This document shows positions 17,605 to 64,000 of a stretch of 64,000 nucleotides of DNA, in pieces. Position 1 is the first letter of the stretch. Each line of letters starts with the position of its first letter. A program made the translations under genes and the position numbers. Source of the DNA: an uncultured Bdellovibrionales bacterium (GTDB lineage Bacteria; Bdellovibrionota; UBA1018; CAIPTA01); contig CAYQES010000006.1 of assembly GCA_964416595.1 (NCBI GenBank), positions 44,414 to 108,413 on the forward strand, given 5' to 3'. Under the pieces are notes generated by a model, which saw only the letters and a program-made list of their open reading frames with translations, searched no databases and was not told where the DNA came from.

Positions 17605-17605
17605 T

Positions 17606-18082
17606 ATGTGGCTGGTGTTGTTAGTTCTTAGCGTGCATTCGCTGGCGGCGCAGATTTCGCAAAAAGAATTGCTGGATTACGCGGATAAATATTCCTATAG
17701 CGATAATCGTAAAAATTTGGGACGCGATAAAGTTTATTCTGCCCAGAAGGGGGATAGAGACGAAGAAACATCCACTTTGCTGCTGGCCTTTCCTGGTCCT
17801 AAATCCTTTCGGCAGGTGGCACTTATGTGCAACCGTTGCGGGGCGGATCTATCTTTGGAAGTTTGTAAAAATGAGTTTATCCAGCTGTATCAAAAATTGA
17901 CGGGTAAGGAACCCTCTTCCAAGCTCATTGCCAAGATCCAAATCCATCAAGATGAAAAGCAAAAGCTGGATTCTTTTAACTCTCAGTTAAGGCTTCGGTT
18001 GTCATCGGGTGCTTTGTACTGTGACGGAGCTAGAGGGAATGGTTTGGGAAGTAGTTTGCGGTTCGATTTTTTTCTGAACTAG
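17606..18082 (+). CDS. Hypothetical secreted protein
   Basis: It follows the previous gene after a 1-nt gap. The signal peptide is MWLVLLVLSVHSLAAQ. Confidence 0.45.
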   Translation: MWLVLLVLSVHSLAAQISQKELLDYADKYSYSDNRKNLGRDKVYSAQKGDRDEETSTLLLAFPGPKSFRQVALMCNRCGADLSLEVCKNEFIQLYQKLTGKEPSSKLIAKIQIHQDEKQKLDSFNSQLRLRLSSGALYCDGARGNGLGSSLRFDFFLN

Positions 18083-47896: not shown

Positions 47897-47911
47897 TGGT
47901 TTTTATTTATC

Positions 47912-48724: not shown

Positions 48725-48827
48725 AGCGGGAGACTAACGGTAACTCCTCCGGCGAGCAAGAGCGAGGGGGTAATTGCGCTCTGCGTTTGGGGACGACAAT
48801 TCCCTTCCGCCCACGTAAGATAGCCCC

Positions 48828-49817
48828 ATGAAAGTTTTAGTCACCGGCGCTTCGGGTTTTGTGGGCAGCACTTTGTGCGAAGAATTGCATAGCCGCGGTT
48901 TGGATGTGCATTGCTTGCTTCGCTCCACAAGTTCCCTAGAGAATCTCACCTCCGCTACATTTCAAAGAGTGGATGGAGACTTAAGCAATGAGCGTGCTTT
49001 GCAAAAAGCCGTAGATGGCGCCGAGCTCATTTTCCATGTGGCCGGCAAAGTGGCCTCGAAAGATCGGGAGGGATTTTTCCGGGCCAATAGCGAGGGCACA
49101 AAAAATCTTTTACGAGCCGTGGAAAGCTCCAAACAGAAACCTCGTTTTGTGTACGTGAGTTCTTTGGCGGCCGCGGGGCCTTCCACTCCCACGCGAGCAA
49201 GAATTGAGAGCGATCCCAACACTCCCGTTTCCGATTACGGTGCTAGTAAACTCGCCGGGGAAGAAGCGGTGCTCGAGTGCCGGGAAAAATTTCCTGTCAC
49301 CATCGTGCGCCCGCCAGCAGTGTATGGTCCGAGAGATAAAGGTGTGTTCACTTTTTTCCAAGCGATCCAAAAGGGCATACTGCCACTTTTAGGAATGCGA
49401 CAAGCGGAGCCCCGGCGCTATAGCTTCGTGCACGTGGCGGATCTTGTGCAAGGCTTGGTGTTGGCCGGTGTGCACGCCAATTCCCGATCGGGAGAAGTTT
49501 TTTATGTGGCGGGTGATGGGGAATACACCTGGGAAGAAGCCATGGGTTTCATTGCGGCGGGCATGGAAAAACAAACTTTATCTTTGCCCATTCCCTTGGT
49601 GGCCTTGAAGGGTGCAGCTTTCGCTTGCTCCGCTTACACCAAGGCCTTTGGCAAGGTGCTGCCCTTTTCCATCGACAAAGCCAAAGAGATTTCTGCACCC
49701 GCTTGGACATGCTCCAACCAGAAAGCCAAGCGGGAGTGGGGTTTCGAGCCCCACTGGGAATTGGCCCGGGGTTTAAGCCATACGGCGCGGTGGTATAAGG
49801 AAAATGGCTGGTTGTAG
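48828..49817 (+). CDS. NAD-dependent epimerase/dehydratase (extended SDR)
   Basis: The Rossmann motif is TGASGFVGSTL. The catalytic YGASK motif is present. Confidence 0.8.
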   Translation: MKVLVTGASGFVGSTLCEELHSRGLDVHCLLRSTSSLENLTSATFQRVDGDLSNERALQKAVDGAELIFHVAGKVASKDREGFFRANSEGTKNLLRAVESSKQKPRFVYVSSLAAAGPSTPTRARIESDPNTPVSDYGASKLAGEEAVLECREKFPVTIVRPPAVYGPRDKGVFTFFQAIQKGILPLLGMRQAEPRRYSFVHVADLVQGLVLAGVHANSRSGEVFYVAGDGEYTWEEAMGFIAAGMEKQTLSLPIPLVALKGAAFACSAYTKAFGKVLPFSIDKAKEISAPAWTCSNQKAKREWGFEPHWELARGLSHTARWYKENGWL

Positions 49818-49844
49818 GGCGAGTGGACGTTAGCGGGCCGCGCT

Positions 49845-50219
49845 TTAAGCCGTGCCCTTCCCACTCGCCGTGATCGCTCGGCCCTCGAAATGCGCGCCGA
49901 ACTTCACTTCGAACTTAGGCGAGCTCACATCGCCAATTAACCGCCCCGATTCGGAAACAGTCACCTTGGTTTTGGCGCTCACATTTCCGTGCACGAAACC
50001 GTCGATGATGATTTCGTCACCTTCCATCTCCCCATGGATAGTGGCGGTTTCTCCTACCACAATCATGCTGCCGGGAAGACCTCGCACGCGGCCTTCCACG
50101 CGGCCGTGGATGCGGGTCATGCGGTCAAAGGTAACATCGCCTTTTAATAAAGATCCTTGGCTAAGAAGCGTGACTTCGGATTCCAGTTGGCGCCCGGGGA
50201 TTGCGTGCACGTCCATCAT
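49845..50219 (-). CDS. Bactofilin-family cytoskeletal protein
   Basis: A repetitive beta-helical bactofilin (DUF583) core is present: GDVTFDRMTRIHGRVEGRVRG...VVGETATIHGEMEGDEIIIDGFVHGNVS. Confidence 0.7.
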   Translation of the reverse strand: MMDVHAIPGRQLESEVTLLSQGSLLKGDVTFDRMTRIHGRVEGRVRGLPGSMIVVGETATIHGEMEGDEIIIDGFVHGNVSAKTKVTVSESGRLIGDVSSPKFEVKFGAHFEGRAITASGKGTA

Positions 50220-51016
50220 CGGAAATCCTCCACGTGGGTATTGCCTAGCACTTTGCCGTCGGTGCCGAAGAGTAGGATTTGGTAATGGGCTTTTTTGTTT
50301 TCCAAGGGAGCTGCAGTAAAAGTAGCCCGGGCTTGGCGGAAGCGGGAAATAGCAAAGGTCTCACCGCGGGTGAAATCCAGCACGATATTTTGCGTGGGGC
50401 TAAATACACCCGGAGGATAAGAGAGCACAAGATCCTGGGTTTTGGCGAGCACCACGATGTAACCGCGGGCTTGCCGTTGGCTAGGATCTACATTGTGCAA
50501 TTCAAAATCCAATAAAACTTGTTTATTTCCCGCTTCCCGGTTGATCTTAGGATTCTTGATCCGCACGAGGGATTCGTTTTCGGGCACTAAACTTGAGCGG
50601 GGCCCAAAAAACTGCAAGAGGCTCTGGCTGTTGTTGGCGCCTAAGTCTTTGCGCCCGTCGATCTGGCTATTGATCCTGGCGATATCTTCCCTTAAGCCCG
50701 CCACTTCTTTTTGTAATTCACTGTCGCTCGCTGCGGGAGGGGCCGTGGCGGTGGTTTTTAGTTGCTGCCAGAGGGAGCTAGAAGGGGCGGCGGTTTCTTC
50801 GGATTTAGTAGACGAAGATGGATTGCTATTTCCCAGCCAAAGACCGAACGAAATGATTGAGGCCAGAATCGCAAAGGCGAAGAGAAACCCGAGGGTTGTG
50901 ATCGACCGATGGAAAGCAGGTAAAGAAAGCCGGAAAGATCGGGGGCTTCCGTTTCCGCGTAAGAGCACGATGGTAAGATCGTCGGAAGATTTGGCTTTCT
51001 TTTTGTTAGTATTCAA
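50216..51016 (-). CDS. Hypothetical membrane-anchored protein co-transcribed with bactofilin
   Basis: The stop overlaps the bactofilin start (ATGA). The transmembrane helix is ITTLGFLFAFAILASIISFGLWL. Confidence 0.5.
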   Translation of the reverse strand: MNTNKKKAKSSDDLTIVLLRGNGSPRSFRLSLPAFHRSITTLGFLFAFAILASIISFGLWLGNSNPSSSTKSEETAAPSSSLWQQLKTTATAPPAASDSELQKEVAGLREDIARINSQIDGRKDLGANNSQSLLQFFGPRSSLVPENESLVRIKNPKINREAGNKQVLLDFELHNVDPSQRQARGYIVVLAKTQDLVLSYPPGVFSPTQNIVLDFTRGETFAISRFRQARATFTAAPLENKKAHYQILLFGTDGKVLGNTHVEDFR

Positions 51017-51111
51017 GGGGATTGCTCTCTTTATCGTTATGCTAAGGAGAAGCTGACTTCAAGTCAAATCCTGTTTTTTGACAGGGGGTTGCGAGAGAAG
51101 TACACTAATAG

Positions 51112-52488
51112 ATGGAGCCAAGAAGGTTCCGTCTTGGGGGGAAGCACAGGATGCGCGTTCTCTGGGTTGACGCAAATGATAATCCTTGGACAGAGTCCAA
51201 GGGCTGGCAAGTGCTGGAAGATTTTGGTCTCCATGTGCTGCGGGTGCCAACGGCAGCGGAGGCCCAAGAGCTTTTAAGCGGCAAAGATTTTGATCTCTTG
51301 CTTGTGCGCGCTGAAATTCCCGATGCCCTTTCTTTTTTCAACAAAGCTCGCAAATTTTTAGCCAAAGATCCACGGCGCATTGTGCTCGCATCAAGCGAAT
51401 GGAGCAAAGATCAATTTAAACAGCATTCCAAGGGCAAGGATTCTGCTCACCGCTACGCCCGCATTCCGATGCCGCCCATGGGTTTTGTGAAATTAGTGGC
51501 CGATGTGTTTGGCTGCAGCGTGGATCAGTTAGCAAATTTCCGGGTTGAGCCTGAAGAGGTTTCTGCGGAAATTTCTGTGGAAACGGAAAAGCCTCTTTTG
51601 AAGAAAAAAGAAATTTCTGTGAGTCCGAATGAATCTTCGGAAGTTTTGCAAAAGTATTTGCGCATGCGGGAAGAGCAATTAGAAATTTCCGAAGGTGAGC
51701 GGGAAGAGTTAGCTCTCGAGAATGAACGTTTACAAAAAGAAGCTCATCAATTGCAATTAAGGATGCGGGAACTTGAGCACCTCCACGAAGAGCTCGCACA
51801 AAAGCTCCAAAGCATGGATGAAGAGCAAAGAGCCAAAGCCCAGGAGTGGGAGCGGGAGCGGGAAGCGAAGGAGCAAGAAGAGCGCTTAAATGCCGATCGT
51901 TTACGCCATCTAGAAGGGCAACTCGGTGAAGCTGGGGAAAAATACGAAAATCTTCGGGTACGGGTGCGAAAAGACATCCGCAAGATCCGAGAGAATGAAC
52001 GGGATTTAGAAGCGCGTTTGGAGCTTTTACGAAAAGATTCGGAAACTTTATTACAAGCTCGGGACGAAAAAGTGCTCGAGATGCAGCGGAAAATCGACGC
52101 CCTAGAGTTTGATTTGGACCAAGTGCAAGACGGCCGGGTGCAAGCCCAGATGGAAGCGGAACGCTATTTAGCAAAACTTTCGCGAGTGGCCCGTGCCCTA
52201 CACATTGCTGTGGGAATGATCGAAGAAGACGCGATCACGGAAGACGCATTGGCCGAATTTGAACCGAGCATGGGTGGCGCTGCCATGGCAGAGGAAGTTC
52301 CTGCGGCGGCGAGCCCCGTGGCACCAGCTCCTGTTGCGCAAAGCCCAGCTCAAGAAGAGGCGGCGGCGGAGCAAGATGCATTATCTGCGGAGCTTGCGGC
52401 TTTGGCAGCCGACGGAGAGCCCACCAAAATGCTCAGCGCCGAAGAATTACAAGAAATGGACGGAGAGCCCGAGTCGTCTTCAGGATAA
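51112..52488 (+). CDS. Pseudo-receiver (degenerate CheY-like) domain protein with a long coiled-coil and acidic C-terminus
   Basis: The receiver-like fold is RVLWVDANDN...DFDLLLVRAEIPD. Arg sits at the phospho-Asp position. About 250 aa of heptad-like E/R/K/L/Q-rich sequence follows. An alternative start is the ATG at 51151. Confidence 0.5.
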   Translation: MEPRRFRLGGKHRMRVLWVDANDNPWTESKGWQVLEDFGLHVLRVPTAAEAQELLSGKDFDLLLVRAEIPDALSFFNKARKFLAKDPRRIVLASSEWSKDQFKQHSKGKDSAHRYARIPMPPMGFVKLVADVFGCSVDQLANFRVEPEEVSAEISVETEKPLLKKKEISVSPNESSEVLQKYLRMREEQLEISEGEREELALENERLQKEAHQLQLRMRELEHLHEELAQKLQSMDEEQRAKAQEWEREREAKEQEERLNADRLRHLEGQLGEAGEKYENLRVRVRKDIRKIRENERDLEARLELLRKDSETLLQARDEKVLEMQRKIDALEFDLDQVQDGRVQAQMEAERYLAKLSRVARALHIAVGMIEEDAITEDALAEFEPSMGGAAMAEEVPAAASPVAPAPVAQSPAQEEAAAEQDALSAELAALAADGEPTKMLSAEELQEMDGEPESSSG

Positions 52489-52510
52489 GTGCGGCTAGGG
52501 TAAGCTTAAG

Positions 52511-53359
52511 ATGGCCAAGGATAACGATAGATTGTTGCTTGCGCTCTGTTTGGAATTATCTTCCGCAAAAGAGAGCTTGGCGGCCCTTGAGGCCATGGGC
52601 CGTTATTTGAAAAGCCGCTTCAAGCCCGCGTTCCAAGAGCAGCGGGATTACGATAAGAGCGAAAGCACTGAGTGTAAGATTTTTACTGTGCAAGGGCGGG
52701 ACTGTAAATTCGTACTCTCCTTACCACTACCTGTTTTATTTGAATTAAAAGATTGCGCGGATTTACCCACAGATTTCGAATTGGATGTGCTCGAAAAAAC
52801 CTGTCACTTTTTCCGGGAGCGCATGGAAACGATCGCGGAGCTGCGGGGCCTCACGCATACGGATGATCTTACGGGCCTCTACAACCAGCGCTACCTTGAG
52901 TTGATTTTGGATCGAGAACTTTCGCTTTCCAAACGGAATAACACAGAATTTTCCGTTCTCTTTTTGGATCTCGATCATTTTAAAAACGTGAACGACTCCC
53001 ACGGCCATTTGATTGGTAGTCGCTTGTTGTTTGAGGTGGGCCAGGAAATCAAACGCACCTTACGGGATTCCGATATTACCTTCCGTTACGGTGGAGATGA
53101 ATTCGTGATCATCCTTTCCCACACAGGCTTGGATGATGCCATGTTTGTGGCCGAACGGATTCGCTCACAGATCGAGAAGAAGCGTTTTTTGGTTCGGGAA
53201 AATATGGAAATCCGTTTGACCGCCAGCATCGGTGTGGCCACGGTGCCATTGCATGCAGGCACCAAACAACAAATCCTCAAAGCGGCCGACGAAGCCCTCT
53301 ACGGCGTGAAAAAAGCCGTGCGCAACAAGGTGATCGCCGCCACTGCGCCGAAGGGCTAA
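52511..53359 (+). CDS. GGDEF-domain diguanylate cyclase with an uncharacterised N-terminal domain
   Basis: An intact RYGGDEF active site and DxLT motif (DDLTGLYNQRY) are present. Confidence 0.85.
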   Translation: MAKDNDRLLLALCLELSSAKESLAALEAMGRYLKSRFKPAFQEQRDYDKSESTECKIFTVQGRDCKFVLSLPLPVLFELKDCADLPTDFELDVLEKTCHFFRERMETIAELRGLTHTDDLTGLYNQRYLELILDRELSLSKRNNTEFSVLFLDLDHFKNVNDSHGHLIGSRLLFEVGQEIKRTLRDSDITFRYGGDEFVIILSHTGLDDAMFVAERIRSQIEKKRFLVRENMEIRLTASIGVATVPLHAGTKQQILKAADEALYGVKKAVRNKVIAATAPKG

Positions 53360-53362
53360 GCC

Positions 53363-54478
53363 TTGAAACGCGTAAAAGTAATCGTAAGCGATTTTCATTT
53401 GGGTAAAGGGCCATTGCTGAAAGATGGCACCGTAAACATTTTGGAAGATTTTCGTTTTGGTCCTTCGTTTGTGGAGTTTCTAAATTACTACCGCACGGGC
53501 GAATATGAAAACTGCGAAGTGGAGCTCGTGATCAACGGCGATTTTTTGAATCTTCTGCAGATCGATTATTTCGGCGTGCACAGCTATTTGATTACGGAAC
53601 GCATGGTGAATCACGCGGTGAGGTCTATCTTGGATGGGCATGCGGAAGTTTTTCAGGCTTTGCGTGAGTTTGCTTCCACTCCTCATCATGCGATTGCTTA
53701 TATTATCGGCAACCACGATATTGGTTTGCTATTTGATGGGCCGCGGAAATTGTTACGGGAAGCCGTTGGACCAAACTTACGTTTTTACGATACCTACTAT
53801 GAATTCGAGCGAGTGCGGGTAGAGCACGGTCATATGTACGAAGCCATCAACGCCACGAACCCCCAGCGATTTTCGTTGCGGGATCCCGATTACCCGGAGC
53901 CTGTGTTGAATTTGCCCTGGGCATCTTTATTCGTGACAATCTTTTTGCCGAAGATCAAAAAAGAGCGGCCATTTGTGGATAAGGTGAAACCGTTCACGGG
54001 CTATATGCGCTGGGCTTGGCTGCACGACACTTTCTTCGCGCTGCGGATTTCTTTTTTTATTTTATTGTCGTTTTTGCGAATGCTTTCGTTGGCCCGGAAA
54101 CATCCATTGCTGGATTTTAAGATCAGCTTGGCGCGGCTAAAGGGAACCACGATTTATCCGAGCTTCGTGAAGGAGGCTAGGAAGATTTTGCGGCTAAATC
54201 CACATCTCCAGGCCGTGATCTTCGGTCACACCCATGTGCTTCGCTATCGGCAGTGGGGTGGGGGTAAGGAATATTTCAATACCGGAACTTGGAACGAAGT
54301 AACGAGTTTGGACATTGCGGATTTTGGTCTACAGACGTTGCTCACCTATGCATACGTGGAATTGCCAGAGGCTGGTAGCTCGGCGGAGGCTGGCCCCAAG
54401 GCGCGGATCCGCTTGAAAGAGTGGCGGGGCATGTGGCGGCCGGAGGTGGATACTAGCGTGATGCCGGTGGGGAGATAG
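53363..54478 (+). CDS. Membrane-associated metallophosphoesterase, 371 aa; paralog of 30874-31989
   Basis: The motifs are SDFHLG, GDFLN, GNHD and GHTHV. The internal hydrophobic stretch is FFALRISFFILLSFLRML. It has the same length and motif order as the 30874-31989 protein. Confidence 0.75.
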   Translation: MKRVKVIVSDFHLGKGPLLKDGTVNILEDFRFGPSFVEFLNYYRTGEYENCEVELVINGDFLNLLQIDYFGVHSYLITERMVNHAVRSILDGHAEVFQALREFASTPHHAIAYIIGNHDIGLLFDGPRKLLREAVGPNLRFYDTYYEFERVRVEHGHMYEAINATNPQRFSLRDPDYPEPVLNLPWASLFVTIFLPKIKKERPFVDKVKPFTGYMRWAWLHDTFFALRISFFILLSFLRMLSLARKHPLLDFKISLARLKGTTIYPSFVKEARKILRLNPHLQAVIFGHTHVLRYRQWGGGKEYFNTGTWNEVTSLDIADFGLQTLLTYAYVELPEAGSSAEAGPKARIRLKEWRGMWRPEVDTSVMPVGR

Positions 54479-54588
54479 GTTGTAGAGGCATACGGCATCG
54501 TCACTTTGTATTGGCTAGGCCACTACAAAAAAACCTAGCAGCAAAATACAGAGTCCGTGCATCCCCCAGTAGGGTGGAGCTAGTGTAT

Positions 54589-55857
54589 TCATAATTCCAA
54601 AATAGAAAATAAGTTCGCGTCTTCCATGGCATTTTGCGTAGCCCTTTGGGCTTCGCGGTTCATCTGTTTTATTTGCGGGTCAGACAAAACTTTTTCCACT
54701 GCTTGAGCAATACGCTGGGCCCCCGCTTTTCTTAAAGGGAGCACTAATCCTAACTGACGATCTTTTATTCTCTGCGCGATGAAGGGTTGATCATTGGTGA
54801 TTGGAATGCAAACCATTGGCACGCCAAAGTAAATGCATTCCGCCACGCTATTGGCCCCCCCGTGCGTGATCATGCACGCCGCGTATGTGAGCACGGAAAT
54901 TTGGTCCACAAATGGCACGAGTTCTACATTCGGCGGCAAGCCTTCTAATTCCTTTAGCTGGGTGTTATATCGCCAGGCACCGCGGGAAAGGAGAAATTTT
55001 CGATGGGGGAGCAGGGTCGCCGCCTCGATCACATTCTGGTAGAGATCCAGTAAACCTGTCTGGAGAGTACCAAAAGAGCAATACACCAAATTTGGGTCGC
55101 GCTCCGTAACCACATTTTTTGCATGATCCAGTAAGCGCATGGGCCCGAGGTAATGCATCGACCTCTGCTCCCGGGGTAAAGGTCGCATGGGAAAATCTAG
55201 AAACTCGGGCATCTGCGTGAGCGTGAGAAGCGGAGAATAACTTTCCCGTAAAGAACAAAAAGTCGGTTGCCCATTGGATTTAGCCAAGTGATTGCCCTCT
55301 CGCAGAATCATTCCATACCAAGATTCCAGTACGAGATGCATCACTTTATTCAACCATCGCCGCCAACGGGAATTTGATTTATAACCCCAGGGTGCGCCGG
55401 GGGGGGGATACTGAGGGTCTAAAGAAAGGGGAAAGTGAATGGCGCAAGCGAAGGAATAAAAAGGCACACCCACCGCCTGGGCGATGGCTGCTCCCTGAAA
55501 CTGCAACTGGTCCACCAAAAATTTATCAATTCCTAAGGCGCGTGCGTGGCTCGGAATTTCCTTGCACATCATCTGCGCGAGGCGCCGATGAAGGAGGCCA
55601 GTGCGTAGGGTGGTCAAAAGCCCGTGGCCGCGGGAGAGTTTACCCCACTCTCTTTCCATCGAACCTAAAGGAAAAGTTTTTTGGCCAATTTCCACCGCTT
55701 CGACGCCTTGCTGACGTACAAGGGCAAGAGAATCGGCTAGTGTAAAAACGGTGACGCGATGGCCTCGTTTCCTCAAAATCCGCCCCAAATTGCATAAGGG
55801 GAGCAAATGTCCAGGCACCGGCGAACTAATGATTCCGAAATGATGGGTGGATTTCAA
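54589..55857 (-). CDS. GT1-family UDP-glycosyltransferase (MGT / CrtX / RhlB-like)
   Basis: The N-terminus is SSPVPGHLLP. The UDP-sugar-binding signature is HGGANSVAECIYFGVPMVCIPITNDQPFIAQR. Confidence 0.75.
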   Translation of the reverse strand: MKSTHHFGIISSPVPGHLLPLCNLGRILRKRGHRVTVFTLADSLALVRQQGVEAVEIGQKTFPLGSMEREWGKLSRGHGLLTTLRTGLLHRRLAQMMCKEIPSHARALGIDKFLVDQLQFQGAAIAQAVGVPFYSFACAIHFPLSLDPQYPPPGAPWGYKSNSRWRRWLNKVMHLVLESWYGMILREGNHLAKSNGQPTFCSLRESYSPLLTLTQMPEFLDFPMRPLPREQRSMHYLGPMRLLDHAKNVVTERDPNLVYCSFGTLQTGLLDLYQNVIEAATLLPHRKFLLSRGAWRYNTQLKELEGLPPNVELVPFVDQISVLTYAACMITHGGANSVAECIYFGVPMVCIPITNDQPFIAQRIKDRQLGLVLPLRKAGAQRIAQAVEKVLSDPQIKQMNREAQRATQNAMEDANLFSILEL

Positions 55858-56921
55858 TGGTTCTTCCTCTCACGCATCCATTCGCGCCCAACCCGGCCTA
55901 GGGTATGCCAGAAGGAAACGCGTAAGCTGTTGTGAAAGGCGTGGGGTGGTTGGATTTTTTCTAGGGCCAACGCGTGGGCTGCGGGCAAGGAGTAGTAGGG
56001 AATGCCCGGGAAAAGATGATGGGTGGCGTGGAAATTCAAATGGAAGGGGGCCCAGATCCACGCCAAGCTGCTGCGCTCTACCACGTTCGTGCCGGCGAGG
56101 TGCACGTCCAAATAATGCTCTTTTTCCGTAAAACCCACGTGATAGTTATGTAAAACGAGCGTGCGCACAAATGCTGTCGCTGAAGAAAAAGCCACGCCAA
56201 AATACCATACCAATAATAACTTCGGATTATGAAAGGTCCAGGTGGCGCCAATTTGGACCATTGTGATCACTAGGCACGCGAGGTCAGCGCGGAGCATCTC
56301 GCTTGCCTCCTCGGGGTCTGGACCCACACGCTGGAATCCACTTTCAAATTGAATCGTAGACCACCGGCGAAAAACAAAATCACGCGCGCGCTTTCCCACT
56401 AGTACCCAGCCAATCGTAACGAAGCTGAAACGCAACAAAAGGATCAGCGGAGAAGCCAAAGGCTCAAGCACAATCTTAAACGGCAAAAAAAACCAAGGAT
56501 TCTTTTCCCGCAAGTCAAAATGTTCCGGATCGTCAATAGTGCCAAACCTATGCGCCGAATGGTGCACTCGGTGCAGGCGAAATAAATAGATTGGCAGCCT
56601 CAGCCAGTAGCCGAGAAATAGATCGTAGATCCTAGCCAAATGAGAAACTTTCATTTCTAAATGTACCACCTCGTGAGCAAAACCAATCGCACGGGAAATT
56701 AAAATGATGCTAATGAGGAAAAAAATAAAATTTAGCGGTTTTGAATTCCAGCTGTAGCAGGCGAGAAAGAATCCCAACCACGCGAGGCTTGCCACCAAGA
56801 AGAAATCGCGGAAAATGCGCCCGTGGGATACGAAAAAAAGTGAACGTTGCTGAGAGGCTTCCCTTAGTTCCGTCATAGAAATACTGTCAGACCAATTGAC
56901 TTTCTGACCACTAGTGTTCAT
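55854..56921 (-). CDS. Membrane fatty-acid-desaturase-family di-iron enzyme (His boxes HEVVH / HRVHH / HATHH)
   Basis: Three His boxes with desaturase spacing and multiple transmembrane segments are present. The stop overlaps the downstream GT start by 4 nt. Confidence 0.75.
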   Translation of the reverse strand: MNTSGQKVNWSDSISMTELREASQQRSLFFVSHGRIFRDFFLVASLAWLGFFLACYSWNSKPLNFIFFLISIILISRAIGFAHEVVHLEMKVSHLARIYDLFLGYWLRLPIYLFRLHRVHHSAHRFGTIDDPEHFDLREKNPWFFLPFKIVLEPLASPLILLLRFSFVTIGWVLVGKRARDFVFRRWSTIQFESGFQRVGPDPEEASEMLRADLACLVITMVQIGATWTFHNPKLLLVWYFGVAFSSATAFVRTLVLHNYHVGFTEKEHYLDVHLAGTNVVERSSLAWIWAPFHLNFHATHHLFPGIPYYSLPAAHALALEKIQPPHAFHNSLRVSFWHTLGRVGREWMRERKNH

Positions 56922-57832
56922 GTAATACTGCTCCGGTACGGAGCTACCGCGAAGAGATGTTCCCGCTCTAAGGATTCCGTGAGAGTGCGGTGGCCTGATT
57001 TCTCGATAAGAGTGCGAATTTTTTTCAGTCGCTCACCGATTCTTCCTTCCCAATCAATTTCCCGCAAGAAATCTTCTTTTTCATTGTTGGTCATGGCCCT
57101 GCCTTCGGCTTCTATCGCTTGGCTTACCCAGTTGGCACTCACCAAGGCTTTCATGAAAATTCGCGTGGCTTCAAAAATCCTATCGTGGTCATTAGCAGAA
57201 ACAGTCGATTGCGACCAGAGGAGTAAACCGCTCCCATGGTGATTGGCTTCGTCTTGAAGCACATTGGTAAAAACTGCTCTTAGTTGAGGATCTTTACAGC
57301 CCTCTCGTAAACTATGGTAGTGCATAATTCCGAAACCCTCGAGCAGCACTTGCACGATAAAAATAAGCACTTCACGACTACTCCCAGTGATGATTTCGGA
57401 TAGTGCGGGCAGTAGGGGGTGAAATTCATATTTTGAACCGGGTTGCTCCACGAGAAAGAGTTCGATCATTTTGCGGTGGAGAGTTTCTTCACCAACCATC
57501 AGGGAGTATAACGACTTTTCTTCTACCGATTCCGCCAAGAGAATCATTTTGGCGCCGAAGTGCAGTCCCGATTTTTCAATGAAGTAAGCGAGCGTAAGGC
57601 TCTGTTGGCTCAACCTCCGCAGCACCTGTTCGCGGGATGCGGAGCTCATCGAGCGAAAAATAGCACTGCGATCTAGCCCCCACTGAGTATCATCCCAATA
57701 TTGGCCCGCAAAATCAGCGCCAGGAAGCGGAAGCTCTATTTTCTTACGCAGAACAGAATCCAATAAAGCGGTAAGACGAGAATCCACGGAAAGATTAGGA
57801 GCGCTTAAACCGGAGGTGAAGTTAATTTTCAT
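56918..57832 (-). CDS. Ferritin-like di-iron-carboxylate protein (putative oxygenase/desaturase)
   Basis: Two E-x-x-H motifs (EETLH, DEANHH) and additional conserved Glu (YFIEKSG, LLEGFG) suggest a four-helix-bundle di-iron site. Confidence 0.45.
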   Translation of the reverse strand: MKINFTSGLSAPNLSVDSRLTALLDSVLRKKIELPLPGADFAGQYWDDTQWGLDRSAIFRSMSSASREQVLRRLSQQSLTLAYFIEKSGLHFGAKMILLAESVEEKSLYSLMVGEETLHRKMIELFLVEQPGSKYEFHPLLPALSEIITGSSREVLIFIVQVLLEGFGIMHYHSLREGCKDPQLRAVFTNVLQDEANHHGSGLLLWSQSTVSANDHDRIFEATRIFMKALVSANWVSQAIEAEGRAMTNNEKEDFLREIDWEGRIGERLKKIRTLIEKSGHRTLTESLEREHLFAVAPYRSSIT

Positions 57833-58463
57833 GTGTCATCTCCACTTTTTGGTTGGGATACAAACGCGTGCCTGCCTCTACTTGCGCTTTTTCCGCAATA
57901 CATACACCGGGGGCAACGTGGCTCGCATAGCCGACCAGCGAACGAGCGCCGATCGTGAGGGGTTTATAATAGACGAGAATGCGTTCGTGCGTCCTCTTCA
58001 CGATGTGGCCGGAGAGGGTTACGTCGTTTCCAAAAATGACAAAGTTGCCTAACTTAAGTGCGGTTCGATCAAATACCTGTACCCCCGGCGACCAAAAAAT
58101 GCCGGTGCCAATTTTACTTCCCCACAGCCGCAGCCAGAAACTAAACGCACCAGGGAAAAGCATCAGCATCCGTTCGAAGAATGAAAAGGAGATAAAAAAA
58201 ATCTGGAGACGGTTAGAGATGTACCAACTATTTGCGACCGCCTCCCGGCGTCCCACGTAACTTACGCCTTCGCGAATTGGGAAAAACAAAGCAAAAATTC
58301 GCCACAGGAGAAGCGGCAAAACAAAAATAACCATTGGCAACAGCGATAACTTAAGCCAACTAAAAGAAATGAAAGTGGAAGCCACCAGAACGCCGATTAT
58401 CAATAGATGCAAGGCCGGAAAAAATGTGGCCGCAGTTTCAAAGATCTTTGGAGGCTTGCGCAT
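57822..58463 (-). CDS. Membrane-anchored hexapeptide-repeat (left-handed beta-helix) acyl/acetyltransferase
   Basis: Two N-terminal transmembrane helices are present. The LbH repeats are IGTGIFWSPGVQVF, LGNFVIFGNDVTLSGHIV and IGARSLVGYASHVAPGVCIAEKAQV. Confidence 0.55.
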   Translation of the reverse strand: MRKPPKIFETAATFFPALHLLIIGVLVASTFISFSWLKLSLLPMVIFVLPLLLWRIFALFFPIREGVSYVGRREAVANSWYISNRLQIFFISFSFFERMLMLFPGAFSFWLRLWGSKIGTGIFWSPGVQVFDRTALKLGNFVIFGNDVTLSGHIVKRTHERILVYYKPLTIGARSLVGYASHVAPGVCIAEKAQVEAGTRLYPNQKVEMTHEN

Positions 58464-59190
58464 CGCCTAACCTTTCTGGGAAAAGGCGCACTAGCGAGCT
58501 GTAACGCGTGTTTTTTCCTTCTTTCAAAGCGACGAACTCATGAAAAATGGCCTCCATCAAATCGGCCGTAAGATCCAAGGAACGCAACATAACCGCTTCC
58601 ACTGCGCGCAGATCCTCGTCGGAATTAACAAATTGTTTAATCACTTCCGCCACTTCGATGGCATGGGTTTGGTCGATTTCTGCGTGTTGCACAAGAAAGC
58701 TCATTTGCTCGGGCTGCACTCCTAAAGAGCTAGTGAGCATCTTTAGGATCGGTTGAATGTATTCGTAAGATCGCTCTGCCCAGTAGCTATATCCCAGCCG
58801 GCCCAATGGATTTCCTTCGCGGGAAATTTGGTAAAGGTAGTCCACCAACGCTTGGGTTTCGGGCAGGGGCACGGGTAAATCATCGGGGGTGATCGACTGA
58901 CCAGAAATTTTTTGCAGATCGTAGAGAGCTAGGTTCTCGTGGCCTAATTCCTCGGTGGCGTGCTTTAGGCAATAACGGAGGTAATTGATATCAATATTCT
59001 CCGAACGCGCGGCCACCGCGGCTTGATTTTTCGCGTTGTGCCTAGTGTAGTGATAGGTTTCCACTAAATAAACTGCATAGAGTCTTAAATCAGCAAAGTT
59101 AGGCGATAGGGCTCGCAAGAGATTTGGACGATCCATGAGAGATCCCATGCGCGAGAGTAGGCTTTGGTCTAATGTATCCATTTTTTTCAC
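58438..59190 (-). CDS. Heme-oxygenase-like fold iron enzyme (HDO / iron-containing redox enzyme family, TenA/PqqC-like)
   Basis: An all-helical 250-aa protein with candidate metal ligands in TEELGHE and HAEIDQTHAIE. The start overlaps the upstream gene by 4 nt. Confidence 0.45.
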   Translation of the reverse strand: MKKMDTLDQSLLSRMGSLMDRPNLLRALSPNFADLRLYAVYLVETYHYTRHNAKNQAAVAARSENIDINYLRYCLKHATEELGHENLALYDLQKISGQSITPDDLPVPLPETQALVDYLYQISREGNPLGRLGYSYWAERSYEYIQPILKMLTSSLGVQPEQMSFLVQHAEIDQTHAIEVAEVIKQFVNSDEDLRAVEAVMLRSLDLTADLMEAIFHEFVALKEGKNTRYSSLVRLFPERLGDAQASKDL

Positions 59191-59921
59191 GGGAAAATTC
59201 CCCCGGCCTTGGCCAAGAGGCCGTTGCCAAAATATTTTTGAAGTTTTTGACGAATCTTTAATTCCGTGGTTTGGATCCGCTCAGCCCTACTGATGATCGT
59301 TTCCATGGAAGCCGCAAGTAGTAGATAATGGCCGTTCCTTGAAGGGAGTTCGAATGCTTGTGGTAATATGTTGCGCATGCCAAATTTGGCGTAGATCGGA
59401 AACTTTGCTTCCCGGCAAACTGCCACGAGACCTTTCGGGTTAAACCGATCCACCGCAAGTTTTCCCGCCGAGCAAATCAGAAAGCGGAGGATCAGGGGGC
59501 TCAAAACTATATCTGGATTTATTACCAAGCGGCTAAATTCAACGTGGTCACGGTATTTTTGCCAATCCACCGGCAAGTCACTCAATAGCGACTGCGCCTC
59601 GAACGGAAATTTCGTTGCCCGGATGGAGGCGATGAGGGTGTGGCCAAGCCGTAGGGCGAGATGCACGCTACGGGCATCCACTGCGCGCTCGAGCTCAACT
59701 TCCTTCTCGTCACGAGCGCACATATAAGGCGCATGCCGCGTAAAATAAGCGGTTCGCAGGTTTGCAACGTCCAGGAGAGCTCGAGGATTCACTAAAGGTT
59801 CGATGAAGTCGAGCTTGAGATCGCTGGGTAATGCATTCAGTGTTTCTTGTGTTAGTTGGTACGCTATACTCTCACGGAAATGCACGGCGCCTCCTTTCGT
59901 AAATACGTCCAATTGCGCCAT
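59187..59921 (-). CDS. GNAT-fold N-acyltransferase of the LuxI / FeeM / OlsB (N-acyl amino acid synthase) superfamily
   Basis: LRTAYFTRHAPYMCARDEKEVELERAVDARSVHLALRLGHTLIASIR parallels the R-x-x-vF...E-x-D-x-x-D...H-l-l...G-t-l-R core of autoinducer-synthase-like enzymes. The long ORF extends to 60125 but would overlap the upstream desaturase by 262 nt. The internal Met at 59921 was chosen. Confidence 0.45.
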   Translation of the reverse strand: MAQLDVFTKGGAVHFRESIAYQLTQETLNALPSDLKLDFIEPLVNPRALLDVANLRTAYFTRHAPYMCARDEKEVELERAVDARSVHLALRLGHTLIASIRATKFPFEAQSLLSDLPVDWQKYRDHVEFSRLVINPDIVLSPLILRFLICSAGKLAVDRFNPKGLVAVCREAKFPIYAKFGMRNILPQAFELPSRNGHYLLLAASMETIISRAERIQTTELKIRQKLQKYFGNGLLAKAGGIFP

Positions 59922-61009
59922 AGAAGGGTGGCAAAAAAACGCCAAAATCCTTGGCGGCGAGAAAAACCAAAAAAACTTAGCTGCTCGGTCGTGAGTAACT
60001 GGTGTTTTAGGTAAAAATGTAAGCGCCACTGCTGGATCCAAGTTAGGCTCGGTCCCAGGTGGTGCGAAAAATGAAATATTTGTCCCCAAGGTCCGCCACC
60101 TACTAGAAGTTCCGTGATTCCACACCCCAATTCGCGGGTGCCGGCATTTAACTCCGCGGGCATTAGATTATGTTCAAAAGAATCACGAATCCTATCGAGA
60201 GAAAGCCCAACCCAGGTGGAAATGAAAACCAATCCGATCAGCGCGATCCACCAGTCAAGGTAGCGCGACAATAAAATCAACTCGATGCTTAAAGTTACCG
60301 CGCCCACAAAATAAGAGACTAAACGCGATCGCGTCCAAGTTTCTTCACCGTAAACCTGAAAATCCACCTTAAAAAGAACGCCGGCGCCGGGCAGGAGGGT
60401 TTTCGCGAGTCTCCTCGGATCTACAAATTGCACAAAAGTTTGATCTTTAAGGGTGCCTAGCTGGGAATGGTGGCTCGCATGATTTTCAGCGTAAAAAAAT
60501 GGATCGGCAAAAAATAGACGGCAAGCGTTTTGGGCGAGAAAGTGTAAAAATTTCGATTTCGTGACGCGCCTAATGGTCTGGTGCGCTGCCCATTCGTGCA
60601 TCGTATAGATTACCCACTGGTAAGCAAATACTCCGTGAAATAGACCCACCGCGAGGGCCACCAAGAGGGGATGTAAGCCGGCCTTTAAAAGTAATGGTGG
60701 AAACCAAGTGAGCAAAAGCACGAACAACAAAAATAGAAATAACACTGGCACTAGTTGTAAGAGAAAAGCGGAGGTGTGTTGTTGGCTATCTTTACGCAAC
60801 AAGGTGGTTATAAATAGTTTTATTTTTTCATTCTGAATTACTGAAAGACGAACACCCTGTATCGAATCATGTTCGCGGGAGTAGCGAGAAAATGCTGAAA
60901 TTTCGGCGGGATATGTTTTCATTTCGACCGACTCCATCCACTCTATGACATCGGGATGCCTGTTTGCGCGAAGAAATACCCTCGCCACAATAGATAGCAT
61001 AAAATTCAA
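59864..61009 (-). CDS. Membrane fatty-acid-desaturase-family di-iron enzyme (His boxes HEWAAH / HASHH / HFSHH); first gene of the operon
   Basis: Three His boxes and four or more transmembrane segments are present. Confidence 0.75.
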   Translation of the reverse strand: MNFMLSIVARVFLRANRHPDVIEWMESVEMKTYPAEISAFSRYSREHDSIQGVRLSVIQNEKIKLFITTLLRKDSQQHTSAFLLQLVPVLFLFLLFVLLLTWFPPLLLKAGLHPLLVALAVGLFHGVFAYQWVIYTMHEWAAHQTIRRVTKSKFLHFLAQNACRLFFADPFFYAENHASHHSQLGTLKDQTFVQFVDPRRLAKTLLPGAGVLFKVDFQVYGEETWTRSRLVSYFVGAVTLSIELILLSRYLDWWIALIGLVFISTWVGLSLDRIRDSFEHNLMPAELNAGTRELGCGITELLVGGGPWGQIFHFSHHLGPSLTWIQQWRLHFYLKHQLLTTEQLSFFGFSRRQGFWRFFATLLWRNWTYLRKEAPCISVRV

Positions 61010-61199
61010 TCATCTAGCTAAAATCTTAAGTCGAGGCACAAAAAATGCGGTTATCTTGGATCTTAATTTGTCAGAAAGGCCGAACGATATTCTGGAAATG
61101 ATAAAATCAAGTATTAGCCTTAAAGTGTGCTTATCGTAAGCGCGCCAGCTTTTAGTCTCGCCAAAGCCAGCGCACTCCTTTACAGAAAGCCAACTTAAA

Positions 61200-62114
61200 C
61201 TAAAAACACGGCTTATATTCTCGTGCTACCCGCAAAGTTTTCTGACCTGGTTTGCTCTGGGGTCGTAGCACTTGCCAATAATTTTTGTTTGAAGGAAAAA
61301 TCTTTCCCGTGCGAGCGAGATCTCGTCCCAAAATCGTAAGTCCGCACTCCAAGTTCTGCACTCCATCCAGAGAATCCATGCCCCGGCGGCAGCCATAGGC
61401 GTATTCTTTTCCGAGATGCAATTGCAATAAACCGGCGGCGATGCCGTTTACTCCCTGGGCTTTTACGCGCTCATTGCAGGAGCTTTCGAAATTGGCCATG
61501 GAAGCGATCAACCACACCCAGAAATTCTTTTTGTCTGCCTCGTTCATTTCCCGAAAGCGGGGGCAAACCATATCTAGATCTGCGTAATGATCCGCAAAAA
61601 GCTGGGGGTGTTCCTGGGGATTGATGCGATTCATAAGATAAGCGCCCCAATTGCCAAACTCTCCCCGCTCGTTAATGAAGCGTGTGCAGTTTTTATTCAC
61701 GCCAAGTGCTTTCGGATCAAAAGGGTGACGGCTGGTGGTATTAGTAGAAAATACTTCCTCCGCCGTTTTTTTCTCCGAGCCCACTTCCACAGACTCCACT
61801 ACAGGTTGTTTAAATAAGTAAGCGGGTCGCTCCACTCGCAAGGTTTCGCCCACTTTTACGGTCATGCCTTTTTCCAACTGCAGCCAATATTTTTTTCCTT
61901 TCACCAGCACTTGGGCGAAGTGATGACCGCCAGCTAAAACTCGCAATCCCACAACGGGATAACTATCTCCAGGCTGAGCGATGCCTGCCACTTGTTCCTG
62001 GGCGGAGAGAGTGAGGAGTTCAGGCAGGCCTGTTTCCTGGCCAAAAGCTAATCTGGCGGTGAAAAGTAAAGCGAGCCCCACGGCTAGCCAGGTGGTTAAG
62101 TTTATTCCCTTCAT
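61200..62114 (-). CDS. Secreted lytic transglycosylase-like protein (SLT domain)
   Basis: The signal peptide is MKGINLTTWLAVGLALLFTARLAFG. The SLT catalytic E-S motif is FESSCNE, with a downstream GLLQL motif. Confidence 0.6.
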   Translation of the reverse strand: MKGINLTTWLAVGLALLFTARLAFGQETGLPELLTLSAQEQVAGIAQPGDSYPVVGLRVLAGGHHFAQVLVKGKKYWLQLEKGMTVKVGETLRVERPAYLFKQPVVESVEVGSEKKTAEEVFSTNTTSRHPFDPKALGVNKNCTRFINERGEFGNWGAYLMNRINPQEHPQLFADHYADLDMVCPRFREMNEADKKNFWVWLIASMANFESSCNERVKAQGVNGIAAGLLQLHLGKEYAYGCRRGMDSLDGVQNLECGLTILGRDLARTGKIFPSNKNYWQVLRPQSKPGQKTLRVAREYKPCF

Positions 62115-62231
62115 ACGTATGCCTCCTTGAAGTCAAGCAACGCTGAACGGAATGGAAAAAAACTCTGCAACCGGTCGGGTCGGCTGAAGAATTCATCAAA
62201 TTGGGCGTGAGTTCAGTATGTATGCGCTTGT

Positions 62232-62271
62232 AAAGATTTGTCAAAAAAATCTTTAAACGGTTCCGTTTAAA
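62232..62271. promoter_or_regulatory. Nested inverted repeats in the AT-rich kdsB upstream region: AAAGATTT-N7-AAATCTTT overlapping TTTAAACGG-tt-CCGTTTAAA
   Basis: The repeats were read directly. They are followed by the small hairpin AGTTGC-ggt-GCAACT plus CTTTTTC at 62326-62347. Confidence 0.3.
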
Positions 62272-62459
62272 TTAAATATATTTATAAATATAAATAATTT
62301 ATTAAAAAGGGGGTAACTCGGCGAAAGTTGCGGTGCAACTCTTTTTCAAAAATCCAACATGACTCATAGCATAATTCACCCAAATAACTCTAGCAAAAAT
62401 CCCAAAATCTACGCTTTTCCCTTTACCTATTGCAGCGCTCTCTACTAGAGTGAAATTCC

Positions 62460-64000
<1,541 letters not shown>

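Follow-up and report, generated by a model that had tools for sequence, protein, structure and literature searches.

Seven packed genes for di-iron enzymes, acyltransferases and a glycosyltransferase in a Bdellovibrionales bacterium: a candidate pathway for an oxidised, glycosylated aminolipid

What is made by a run of seven tightly packed genes that encode oxygen-dependent iron enzymes, two acyltransferases and a glycosyltransferase? In the window, by which we mean the whole 64-kb stretch of DNA analysed, the ORF listing places seven minus-strand ORFs (G1 to G7) at 54589-61009, exactly where an earlier sequence-only reading had put them (Table 1). The three 4-nt overlaps described in that reading were checked: ATGA at 56918/56921 (G5/G6) and TTGA at 55854/55857 (G6/G7) are real, and so is GTGA at 59187/59190 (G2/G3), but only with the GTG start of G3. 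The database protein for G3 (P0061) has 247 aa and thus begins at an ATG 9 nt downstream of the GTG, which leaves a 5-nt gap between G2 and G3. The other junctions, estimated earlier at about 10 to 60 nt depending on the start, measured 11 nt (G4/G5), 26 nt (G3/G4) and 58 nt (G1/G2, with the M69 start of G2). The G2 start at 59921 agrees with the database protein P0060 and with orthologues of 220-253 aa. Residue 30 of G1 is an invariant Met in the orthologue alignment A2, so the start of G1 is most likely 60922. G7 has a TTG start with an AGGA-like site 5' of it. Since the seven ORFs overlap or abut, their arrangement argues for a single transcript.

Table 1. Positions in the window and assignments of the operon genes and of the upstream gap.
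Feature	Position	Strand	ORF as listed	Assignment	Remarks
G1	59864..60922	-	59864-61009	Divergent membrane FA_desaturase-family di-iron enzyme, ~352 aa	Length from M30; longest ORF reaches 61009
G2	59187..59921	-	59187-60125	GNAT, LuxI/FeeM/OlsB clade, 244 aa	LasI/FeeM fold
G3	58438..59190	-	58438-59190	Heme-oxygenase-like di-iron oxidase (HDO)	250 aa from GTG, 247 aa from ATG at 59181
G4	57822..58463	-	57822-58463	Membrane-anchored left-handed beta-helix (hexapeptide) acyltransferase, 213 aa	Two N-terminal TM helices
G5	56918..57832	-	56918-57832	Ferritin-like di-iron oxidase/oxygenase, rare family, 304 aa	Fold and di-iron motifs
G6	55854..56921	-	55854-56921	Membrane FA_desaturase-family enzyme, 355 aa	Pfam FA_desaturase
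G7	54589..55857	-	54589-55857	GT1 (GT-B) nucleotide-sugar glycosyltransferase, macrolide/natural-product type, 422 aa	Pfam
Upstream non-coding gap	60923-61199	-		Presumed promoter/leader	Bounded by the M30 start of G1 and the gene at 61200-62114

The revised start of G1 defines the upstream gap, in which neither a consensus promoter nor an Rfam element was found. A promoter at 61010-61199 and a terminator at 54479-54588 had been thought to bound the unit, and this part of the sequence-only reading was not upheld: a consensus scan detected neither a sigma-70-like site on the minus strand of the first region nor a terminator-like hairpin in the second, and overall scan counts were not above those of shuffles. 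Genes for an acyl carrier protein, an exporter or a reductase partner for the iron enzymes are absent from the 64-kb window.

All seven family assignments made earlier survived profile, motif or fold tests, active-site residues were likewise confirmed, and three of the seven products are membrane proteins. G1 contains four hydrophobic segments, and its three His boxes (HEWAAH, HASHH and HFSHH) are invariant in alignment A2; Pfam FA_desaturase was matched by all seven of its orthologues (best 6.7e-10), and the window protein itself gave no match to this model. G6 matched the same model at 5.2e-19 (69.4 bits, cut-off 29.7), with the His boxes HEVVH, HRVHH and HATHH. G6 has no orthologue among 82 related loci and is a lineage-specific add-on. 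An unrelated FA_desaturase adjoins G5 in locus L025, and a P450-containing variant locus carries a 355-aa FA_desaturase. G7 matched Pfam UDPGT, EryCIII-like_C and Glyco_tran_28_C, and NCBIfam MGT at 1.1e-34, under its cut-off; its best PDB matches were Kcn28, YjiC and OleD.

The two soluble iron enzymes have unrelated folds. G3 matched Pfam Haem_oxygenas_2 (1.9e-17). In alignment A4, E81, H84, E139, H169 and D173 are invariant and H176 is almost invariant, a pattern that gives a 3-His/3-carboxylate ligand set. No close sequence relation of G3 to any characterised HDO was found, and its nearest solved structure is PDB 3dde (7e-54), a protein of unknown function. Pfam holds no model for the G5 family. 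The fold of G5 lies near the N-oxygenases AurF and CmlI, and this proximity would suit a lipidic hydroxamate, in which G5 would N-hydroxylate an N-acyl ornithine or lysine at its side-chain amine and G4 would acylate the N-hydroxyl, giving an amphiphilic, siderophore-like product. However, ADO, R2lox and RNR-R2 score equally, so the fold match does not discriminate; the window G5 has no AurF match at the sequence level (Pfam), and no siderophore transport or receptor genes lie within the window. We regard such a product as improbable.

G2 is a candidate N-acyl amino-acid synthase that would form an amide bond. G2 itself matched no Pfam model and fell below detection by the FeeM profile, and its fold fits AHL synthases as well as FeeM, so the amine acceptor could also be SAM or another non-amino-acid. 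Among 50 homologues of G2, FeeM was the commonest Pfam match (22) and Acetyltransf_5 was matched by 7. G4, with TM segments within residues 7-64 and an invariant H153 and WLRLWG motif across 73 sequences, is a candidate second (O-)acyltransferase. It scored under the cut-off of Pfam Hexapep and matched in part the NCBIfam models for the Pls/PosA terminal domain (2.2e-7), WcaF and LacA; the models closest to it are acetyltransferases rather than long-chain acyltransferases.

Conservation across genomes, which the sequence-only reading had proposed as a check, proved informative. G4 and G5 occur near each other in 72 of the 82 loci, spanning Bdellovibrionota, Cyanobacteria, Melainabacteria, Acidobacteriota, Elusimicrobia and others. 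We distinguished type A, loci with a GH3 amido-synthetase (n = 55) that represent the orphan Rieske/CylC cluster of cyanobacteria, from type B, loci with a FeeM/LuxI-fold GNAT and an HDO (n = 16 including the window). In type A, G4 and G5 stand alongside the GH3, Rieske oxygenases and an OlsE-like hydroxylase; in type B, all taxonomically labelled loci belong to Bdellovibrionota. G4 is a same-strand neighbour of the GH3 in 51/54 type-A loci and of the HDO in 11/12 type-B loci. No locus carried GH3 and GNAT together, and because type-B G5 proteins form a monophyletic, separate clade in the G5 tree, this exclusivity reflects one evolutionary split rather than repeated independent swaps. The conserved core, which recurs in predatory bacteria, is G2-G3-G4-G5, often with G1 (present in 7 other type-B loci, 8 counting the window) or a GT1; a GT1 homologous to G7 lies downstream of G5 in three other loci (L023, L084 and L085), and the order GNAT-HDO-G4-G5-GT1 is repeated in L084 and L085. 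The gene set and order are thus above chance, since both recur in other genomes. The view of the seven genes as one unit stood in respect of their tight packing, but not as a conserved set of seven, the recurrent part being the four-gene core.

The bacterial GH3 enzyme OlsH uses fatty acid and ATP to make N-acyl-ornithine (PMC12493201; review PMC12971839), so GH3 and GNAT would both be amide-forming, N-acylating enzymes. The sole NCBIfam match of type-A GH3 proteins was OlsH, and that of type-A FA_hydroxylases was the ornithine-lipid hydroxylase OlsE, each far under the curated cut-off. MMPL lipid exporters are also encoded in related loci, as is an amidohydrolase with a fused Mpo1-like 2-hydroxy-fatty-acid dioxygenase domain. 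The replacement of GNAT by GH3 and these neighbours strengthen the earlier suggestion of N-acyl amino-acid or lipid chemistry.

Considering the observed folds and families, metal-ligand sets, packing and conservation of the core, we infer a substrate, an order of steps and a product: with a probability of about 0.5, the seven genes specify an oxygen-dependent route for building and tailoring a membrane-associated, O-acylated and glycosylated N-acyl amino-acid lipid. In this scheme G2 would use a fatty acyl thioester to N-acylate an amino acid, and G5 and G3 would then oxidise the N-acyl scaffold, G5 most likely by hydroxylation and G3 possibly by desaturation, C-C cleavage or N-oxygenation. 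G4 would place a second acyl or acetyl group on a hydroxyl, in parallel to OlsA and OlsI, after which G1 and G6 may desaturate or hydroxylate the acyl chains and G7 may glycosylate a hydroxyl. Decarboxylation-olefination by G3, and the step order given in the sequence-only reading, are speculation. If the aminolipid assignment is true, the product would be an undescribed, heavily oxidised amino-acid lipid.

Another possibility, to which we give clearly less weight, is that the genes make a diffusible signal or a secondary metabolite instead of a structural lipid, with G2 as a synthase of N-acyl amides or of the AHL type and the remaining enzymes decorating a small secreted molecule. Such a system would be comparable to the fee clusters, which make long-chain N-acyl-tyrosines, or to modified AHLs, and its chemistry overlaps that of an aminolipid pathway, the main difference being the role of the product. 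However, no LuxR-type receptor gene adjoins the operon, the leading match of G2 homologues is to FeeM, and the three membrane-embedded enzymes, the MMPL exporters and the OlsH/OlsE-like partners in type A point to membrane lipids. It is unlikely that the enzymes instead remodel existing envelope lipids (glycerolipids, lipid A or LPS) with the GNAT being incidental. The weak, partial similarity of G4 to WcaF, LacA, LpxD and LpxA-type beta-helix transferases would fit this, as would membrane acyl chains being the usual substrate of FA_desaturase-family enzymes and the presence of kdsB (LPS core synthesis) about 1.5 kb upstream on the opposite strand. Yet the genes flanking the operon are not conserved together with it, the core includes the GNAT and HDO without desaturases or a glycosyltransferase, G6 and G7 are respectively absent from and rare in the other loci, and in most type-A loci the partner of G4 is an amide-forming GH3.

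Searches of NCBIfam, the PDB and the literature turned up no characterised pathway with the same gene set, in line with the earlier statement that none was known to combine an N-acyl amino acid synthase-type enzyme, four distinct iron enzymes and a glycosyltransferase, and no paper describing the operon was found. The system is not entirely new, since the G4-G5 pair already occurs in cyanobacterial 'Rieske-containing' CylC clusters, listed as orphans in 2021 and proposed to act on fatty-acid-derived substrates (Eusebio et al., PMC8406957). Both systems are orphan and oxygenase-rich; in contrast to those clusters, the window has GNAT, HDO, desaturase-family and GT1 genes, lacks Rieske, CylC-like, Fer2, FA_hydroxylase and GH3 genes, and has a G5 of the separate type-B clade.

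The ornithine-lipid pathways (OlsB/OlsA, OlsF and OlsH/OlsI, with the hydroxylases OlsC/D/E) follow the same logic of N-acylation, a second acyltransferase and O2-dependent tailoring. G2 and OlsB fall in one GNAT clade, as the Acetyltransf_5 matches indicate, the sister type-A loci contain OlsH-like GH3 and OlsE-like FA_hydroxylase, and the G4-GH3 adjacency parallels the N-/O-acyltransferase pairs OlsB-OlsA and OlsH-OlsI. However, the operon has no PlsC-type OlsA, alpha/beta-hydrolase OlsI or OlsF, its proteins reached none of the NCBIfam Ols models, the role of second acyltransferase would fall to a TM-anchored beta-helix protein, and the operon adds four di-iron enzymes of three unrelated folds and a GT1. 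Soil-eDNA FeeM clusters (fee; FeeM structure 2g0b) differ in that G2 escapes the FeeM profile and the operon has no dedicated ACP. The C-terminus of the Pls/PosA poly-amino-acid synthetases (TIGR02353) resembles G4 in placing a beta-helix transferase unit after TM helices, with partial matches of G4 and of a type-A orthologue (8.9e-6), far under the 423-bit cut-off; G4 is free-standing, without NRPS adenylation or thiolation domains. To our knowledge, the tailoring set of HDO, ferritin-like oxidase, beta-helix transferase, desaturases and GT1 is unlike the fee genes. With UndA, BesC, SznF and MboA, G3 shares the Pfam HDO domain and the full ligand set, although its closest solved relative is 3dde rather than one of these, and MboA (PMC13185094) shows that amide-linked amino-acid substrates are within the range of HDOs. 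Unrelated Pseudomonas clusters also contain HDO relatives with about 42% identity.

The seven minus-strand reading frames of the operon were recovered in the ORF listing exactly where the sequence-only reading had placed them (see the table), and its account of their packing was also confirmed. Four-nucleotide stop/start overlaps were read at three junctions, as ATGA between the stop of G5 (ferritin-like di-iron protein) and the start of G6 (membrane desaturase-family enzyme), as TTGA between G6 and G7 (glycosyltransferase), and as GTGA between G2 (GNAT N-acyltransferase) and G3 (heme-oxygenase-like di-iron oxidase, HDO). Larger overlaps of 11 nt between G4 (membrane-anchored hexapeptide acyltransferase) and G5, 26 nt between G3 and G4, and 58 nt between G1 (the other desaturase-family enzyme) and G2 were present at the remaining junctions. 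The last value takes 59921 as the start of G2, because its orthologues measure 220-253 aa and the database copy of the window protein 244 aa. Residue 30 of G1 is a methionine that is invariant in an alignment with seven orthologues, so the start of G1 is probably at 60922. The database copy of G3 has 247 aa, which would therefore put its start at an ATG 9 nt downstream of the GTG, with a 5-nt gap replacing the 4-nt overlap; the G2/G3 packing is tight under either start. Shine-Dalgarno-like GGAG/AGGA sequences precede G1 (at M30), G4, G5, G6 and the TTG start of G7. The further proposal that a promoter at 61010-61199 and a terminator-like region at 54479-54588 delimit the unit was not supported, as neither a promoter-like site on the minus strand of the former nor a terminator-like hairpin in the latter came out of a consensus scan, whose totals did not exceed those of shuffled controls. 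No Rfam element was found in the operon or across the 64-kb window, which contained no tRNA, rRNA or other family.

Coordinates of the operon genes and of flanking reading frames without a Pfam match
Feature	Position	Strand	Basis	Remark
G1	59864-61009	minus	ORF listing, longest frame	
G2	59187-60125	minus	ORF listing, longest frame	
G3	58438-59190	minus	ORF listing	
G4	57822-58463	minus	ORF listing	
G5	56918-57832	minus	ORF listing	
G6	55854-56921	minus	ORF listing	
G7	54589-55857	minus	ORF listing	
458-aa ORF	51112-52488			no Pfam match; long charged coiled-coil-like region
371-aa ORF	53363-54478			no Pfam match; hydrophobic C-terminal part
304-aa ORF	61200-62114	same as operon		no Pfam match; directly upstream of operon; N-terminal signal-like sequence

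The family calls initially made for the seven proteins all stood, those of G1, G2 and G4 through orthologues, fold or motifs and not through curated thresholds. G6 matched Pfam FA_desaturase (PF00487) at E 5.2e-19 (69.4 bits, cut-off 29.7) and has the His boxes HEVVH, HRVHH and HATHH together with paired hydrophobic segments. The window copy of G1 did not match this model, whereas all seven of its orthologues did (best 6.7e-10), and its His boxes HEWAAH, HASHH and HFSHH were invariant across the orthologues. Both proteins thus show the three-box pattern (HX3-4H, HX2HH, HX2HH) with flanking transmembrane segments, and G1 is a predicted divergent member of the same superfamily as G6. G3 matched Pfam Haem_oxygenas_2 (PF14518) with 64.1 bits (cut-off 28.9, E 1.9e-17) and PDB 3dde, a structure of unknown function from Shewanella denitrificans, at 7e-54. 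A set of three histidine and three carboxylate ligands is expected of HDO di-iron sites such as those of UndA, BesC and SznF, and the G3 family keeps E81, H84, E139, H169, D173 and H176, so that both the profile and six metal ligands on core helices (three His and three Asp/Glu) place it in the HDO family.

A four-helix-bundle fold and two E...EXXH motifs identified G5 as a ferritin-like di-iron carboxylate oxidase/oxygenase. It matched no Pfam family, and sequence profiles assigned it neither to the ADO nor to the AurF/CmlI N-oxygenase subfamily, with PDB ADO matches at E ~0.2; PDB sequences searched with profiles of G1, G2 and G5 gave nothing significant. A lipidic hydroxamate, formed by an AurF-like N-oxygenase and an acyltransferase, would agree with the di-iron fold of G5 beside G4 and would require the subfamily that the profiles did not return; we consider this product very improbable.

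G2 showed the LuxI/FeeM variant of the GNAT fold. The window protein did not match the FeeM profile (PF21926); 22 of 50 homologues did (best 8e-7), the GNAT neighbour gene in the related metagenomic locus L084 is annotated FeeM, and the Autoind_synth profile was matched by only 2 of the 50. These homologues were obtained by an exhaustive search of representatives, and a word-indexed search returned G2 alone. In G4, a candidate left-handed beta-helix (hexapeptide) acyltransferase, two hydrophobic helices at the N-terminus (residues 7-64) are followed by a region with partial NCBIfam matches to WcaF, LacA and the Pls/PosA terminal domain, all under curated cut-offs; the protein scored 15.2 bits against Pfam Hexapep, under the cut-off of 27, and matched PDB LacA at 0.022, and its H153 and WLRLWG motif were invariant among 73 family members. 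G7 exceeded the cut-offs of UDPGT (59 bits against 19.5) and EryCIII-like_C (59.9 against 31.7), matched PDB GT1 structures at up to 8e-22, and belongs to the GT1 (GT-B) enzymes of macrolide/natural-product type. That the product is a secreted signal of an AHL-like or N-acyl-amide kind, or a natural product, is an alternative that we regard as rather unlikely.

Related loci were collected by a scan with the G5 alignment, one genome per species, which yielded 119 loci; 80 of these were fetched, and 82 loci were compared by tblastn followed by ORF clustering. A G4 gene lay within ~10 kb of G5 in 72 of the 82. Loci carrying both came from Bdellovibrionota, Nostocales and other Cyanobacteria, Melainabacteria, Acidobacteriota, Elusimicrobia, Myxococcota, Candidatus Berkiella and others, and the pair occurs in two architectures. 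Type A (55 loci) contained a GH3 protein, one to five Rieske oxygenases, an FA_hydroxylase, an unknown 261-aa protein, a CylC/AurF-like di-iron protein and a 2Fe-2S ferredoxin, often with an SDR, an amidohydrolase fused to an Mpo1-like domain, a SnoaL protein and an MMPL transporter; it is the Rieske-containing class of CylC-homologue clusters. Type B (16 loci, the window counted) combined a G2-type GNAT with a G3-type HDO, and its taxonomically labelled members were all Bdellovibrionota. G1 was present in eight type-B loci including the window, a FkbM-type methyltransferase was frequent, and an MMPL gene occurred in some. The methyltransferase (Methyltransf_21) was fused to the N-terminus of the HDO in L003 (6832-8466), L006 (12550-14184) and L015 (3993-5705), giving proteins of 544-570 aa, was a separate gene in L023 and L025, and was missing from the window operon.

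Two metagenomic loci reached through HDO homologues, L084 and L085, carried a FeeM/Acetyltransf_5 GNAT, HDO, G4, G5 and a UDPGT-type GT1 in the window order, and L023 also had a G7-like GT1. From this occurrence across related loci, G2-G3-G4-G5 constitute the conserved unit, G1 and the GT1 are recurrent accessories, and G6 is private to the window. The view that all seven genes form one system was therefore upheld in part: the core G2-G5 recurs elsewhere in the same order, but G6 has no orthologue in any related locus compared. Chance juxtaposition of the genes was rejected on the same conserved order. Other FA_desaturase genes were found beside G5 in L025 and in a P450-carrying variant without G5.

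A GH3 gene alone was found in 55 of the 82 loci, a GNAT alone in 16, both in none, and neither in 11, which were mostly truncated. FeeM-type GNATs convert acyl-ACP into N-acyl amino acids, and OlsB belongs to the same clade. Work of 2025 showed that OlsH (Sinac_1599), a bacterial GH3 enzyme, uses ATP to join fatty acids to ornithine (PMC12493201; review PMC12971839), and the lyso-ornithine lipid it forms is then O-acylated by OlsI (PMC12493201). Given these OlsH and FeeM/OlsB activities, types A and B would carry alternative, non-homologous amide-forming N-acylating enzymes. The only NCBIfam match of the type-A GH3 was OlsH (1.7e-5) and that of the type-A FA_hydroxylase was the ornithine-lipid hydroxylase OlsE (4e-14); as both scores are far under the cut-offs, they denote kinship and not membership. 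Type B was monophyletic in a neighbour-joining tree of G5, so the GH3/GNAT alternation represents a single historical split and not repeated independent evidence, and repeated independent replacement of one enzyme by the other was rejected. Among type-A loci, G4 lay on the same strand as, and no more than 60 nt from, GH3 in 51 of 54 and the OlsE-like gene in 36 of 52. Its direct neighbours in type B are the HDO, in 11 of 12 loci, and G5. This adjacency mirrors the operon logic of OlsB-OlsA and OlsH-OlsI, which makes G4 the best candidate for a second acyl transfer. The type-A triad of OlsE-like FA_hydroxylase, G4-like acyltransferase and GH3 was tightly coupled, often with 4-nt overlaps, for example at 14773-17691 of L037 (Calothrix sp. 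NIES-4105), where GH3 occupies 16165-17691, and such coupling suggests that the orphan Rieske/CylC clusters make aminolipids.

Considering these results, we propose that the product of the operon is a tailored N-acyl amino-acid lipid (aminolipid), with a probability of about 0.5 for the product class and less for each step. The protein folds, the sets of metal ligands, the coupling of the genes and their conservation are shown directly, and from them we infer the remaining pathway. In the model, an amino acid would be N-acylated by G2 as a candidate N-acyl amino-acid synthase; the scaffold would be oxidised by G5 and G3, with G5 perhaps acting as a hydroxylase that makes the acceptor for G4; G4 would add a second acyl or acetyl group; G1 and G6 would desaturate or hydroxylate the chains; and G7 would glycosylate the product. 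A lipid substrate fits because G1, G4 and G6 are membrane-anchored and because MMPL exporters and the Mpo1-like 2-hydroxy-fatty-acid dioxygenase domain occur in related loci. A remodelling of bulk envelope lipids or LPS is an alternative that we judge quite improbable.

Membership in known systems was examined in turn. The operon differs from the Ols pathways (OlsBA/OlsF/OlsHI) in having no OlsA, OlsI or OlsF equivalent; no window protein matched an NCBIfam Ols model, the operon holds no PlsC or alpha/beta-hydrolase gene, and a known ols cluster was accordingly rejected. A LuxI/LuxR quorum-sensing pair was rejected since no Autoind_bind/LuxR gene flanks the operon. Carotenoid glycoside-ester clusters have backbone genes, for example phytoene synthase or desaturase, beside the glycosyltransferase and acyltransferase, and this assignment was rejected because no crt-type model was matched by the operon proteins or ten flanking ORFs. 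The Rieske-containing class of CylC-homologue clusters, with two to four Rieske proteins, a CylC homologue and a sterol-desaturase-family protein, is the most abundant in cyanobacteria (n = 36) and has no known product (Eusebio et al., PMC8406957). Its defining families are absent throughout the 64-kb window, and only orthologues of G4 and G5 are common to both. Our literature search found no description of the type-B gene combination, of 3DDE, of FeeM plus HDO, or of Bdellovibrio aminolipids. The claim that no characterised pathway has this gene set was thus borne out, and in our analysis the operon is a candidate aminolipid or N-acyl-amino-acid-like pathway that is a member of no characterised one. 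Familiar superfamilies and the familiar logic of N-acylation plus tailoring are present in an uncharacterised combination, which the conserved acyltransferase and di-iron oxygenase pair ties to a large orphan cluster family.

A broader reading of both types is that the G4-G5 pair marks an unrecognised, phylum-spanning aminolipid route of the acyloxyacyl type (at least 119 genome loci), in which GH3 or a FeeM-like GNAT would make the N-acyl amino acid and an O2-dependent di-iron hydroxylase would afterwards add the acceptor hydroxyl, which would not be inherited from 3-hydroxyacyl-ACP. This is tentative and in our estimate unlikely, but if true it would be a fourth aminolipid pathway, would assign a class of product to the orphan CylC cluster type that is most abundant in cyanobacteria, and would imply that predatory Bdellovibrionota have glycosylated, poly-oxidised aminolipids in their envelope. 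Among bacteria, aminolipids and N-acyl amino acids are widespread as membrane and signalling molecules, and ornithine lipids have three known routes, the newest described in 2025. Together with about 17 related loci of type B and at least 55 of type A, the operon suggests a further, oxygen-dependent family of such pathways centred on the conserved acyltransferase and di-iron pair. For the orphan Rieske/CylC clusters it offers a concrete class of product to test for. One short pathway that unites four di-iron enzymes with three different folds (HDO, ferritin-like and membrane desaturase-like) would be a compact source of new C-H-activating biocatalysts. The operon also hints at unexplored envelope or secreted lipids in predatory Bdellovibrionota, and is a well-supported, experimentally tractable lead.

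Several variants were observed around these loci. A family of ~240-290 aa with no Pfam or NCBIfam match adjoins the GT1 in L084 (12366-13121), L085 (12484-13194) and L023 (11433-12302, minus strand) and is absent from the window. A variant locus on a metagenome contig (JGI 3300059473) encodes an HDO, a protein of 232 aa and an FA_desaturase of 355 aa, and its opposite strand carries a P450 and a G4-like hexapeptide protein; because G5 is absent there, the P450 may replace the ferritin-like oxidase. HDO relatives ~42% identical to G3 occur in a different cluster of the Pseudomonas syringae group (L083, 6096-11153), together with an AMP-binding enzyme, a 181-aa unknown protein, an FMN reductase, an EamA transporter and an alpha/beta-hydrolase, adjoining a LuxR-type regulator and anthranilate-synthase genes; this HDO protein was indexed in 424 collection blocks. 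The Bacteriovoracaceae MAG CALIJZ01 has two G5 loci in one genome, L004 with a G4-G5 pair and neither GNAT nor HDO within the flank, and L025 with GNAT, HDO, G1, methyltransferase, MMPL gene and a separate FA_desaturase. L028 (labelled Sulfitobacter sp.) and L030 (Halobacteriovorax sp.) have equal gene content and near-identical G5 despite different phyla, which may reflect a binning error or recent transfer.

The ten flanking ORFs scanned (46778-63215) included an alanine dehydrogenase, a metallo-beta-lactamase-fold protein, an epimerase, a GGDEF protein and KdsB, and five had no Pfam match. The flanking genes were not common to related loci, and no further type-A or type-B family gene was found elsewhere in the 64-kb window. 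Every window protein looked up was a singleton at 90% identity, and no close relative of the source organism appears to have been sequenced. In the G5 tree, the window fell within a clade whose taxonomically labelled members were all Bdellovibrionota.
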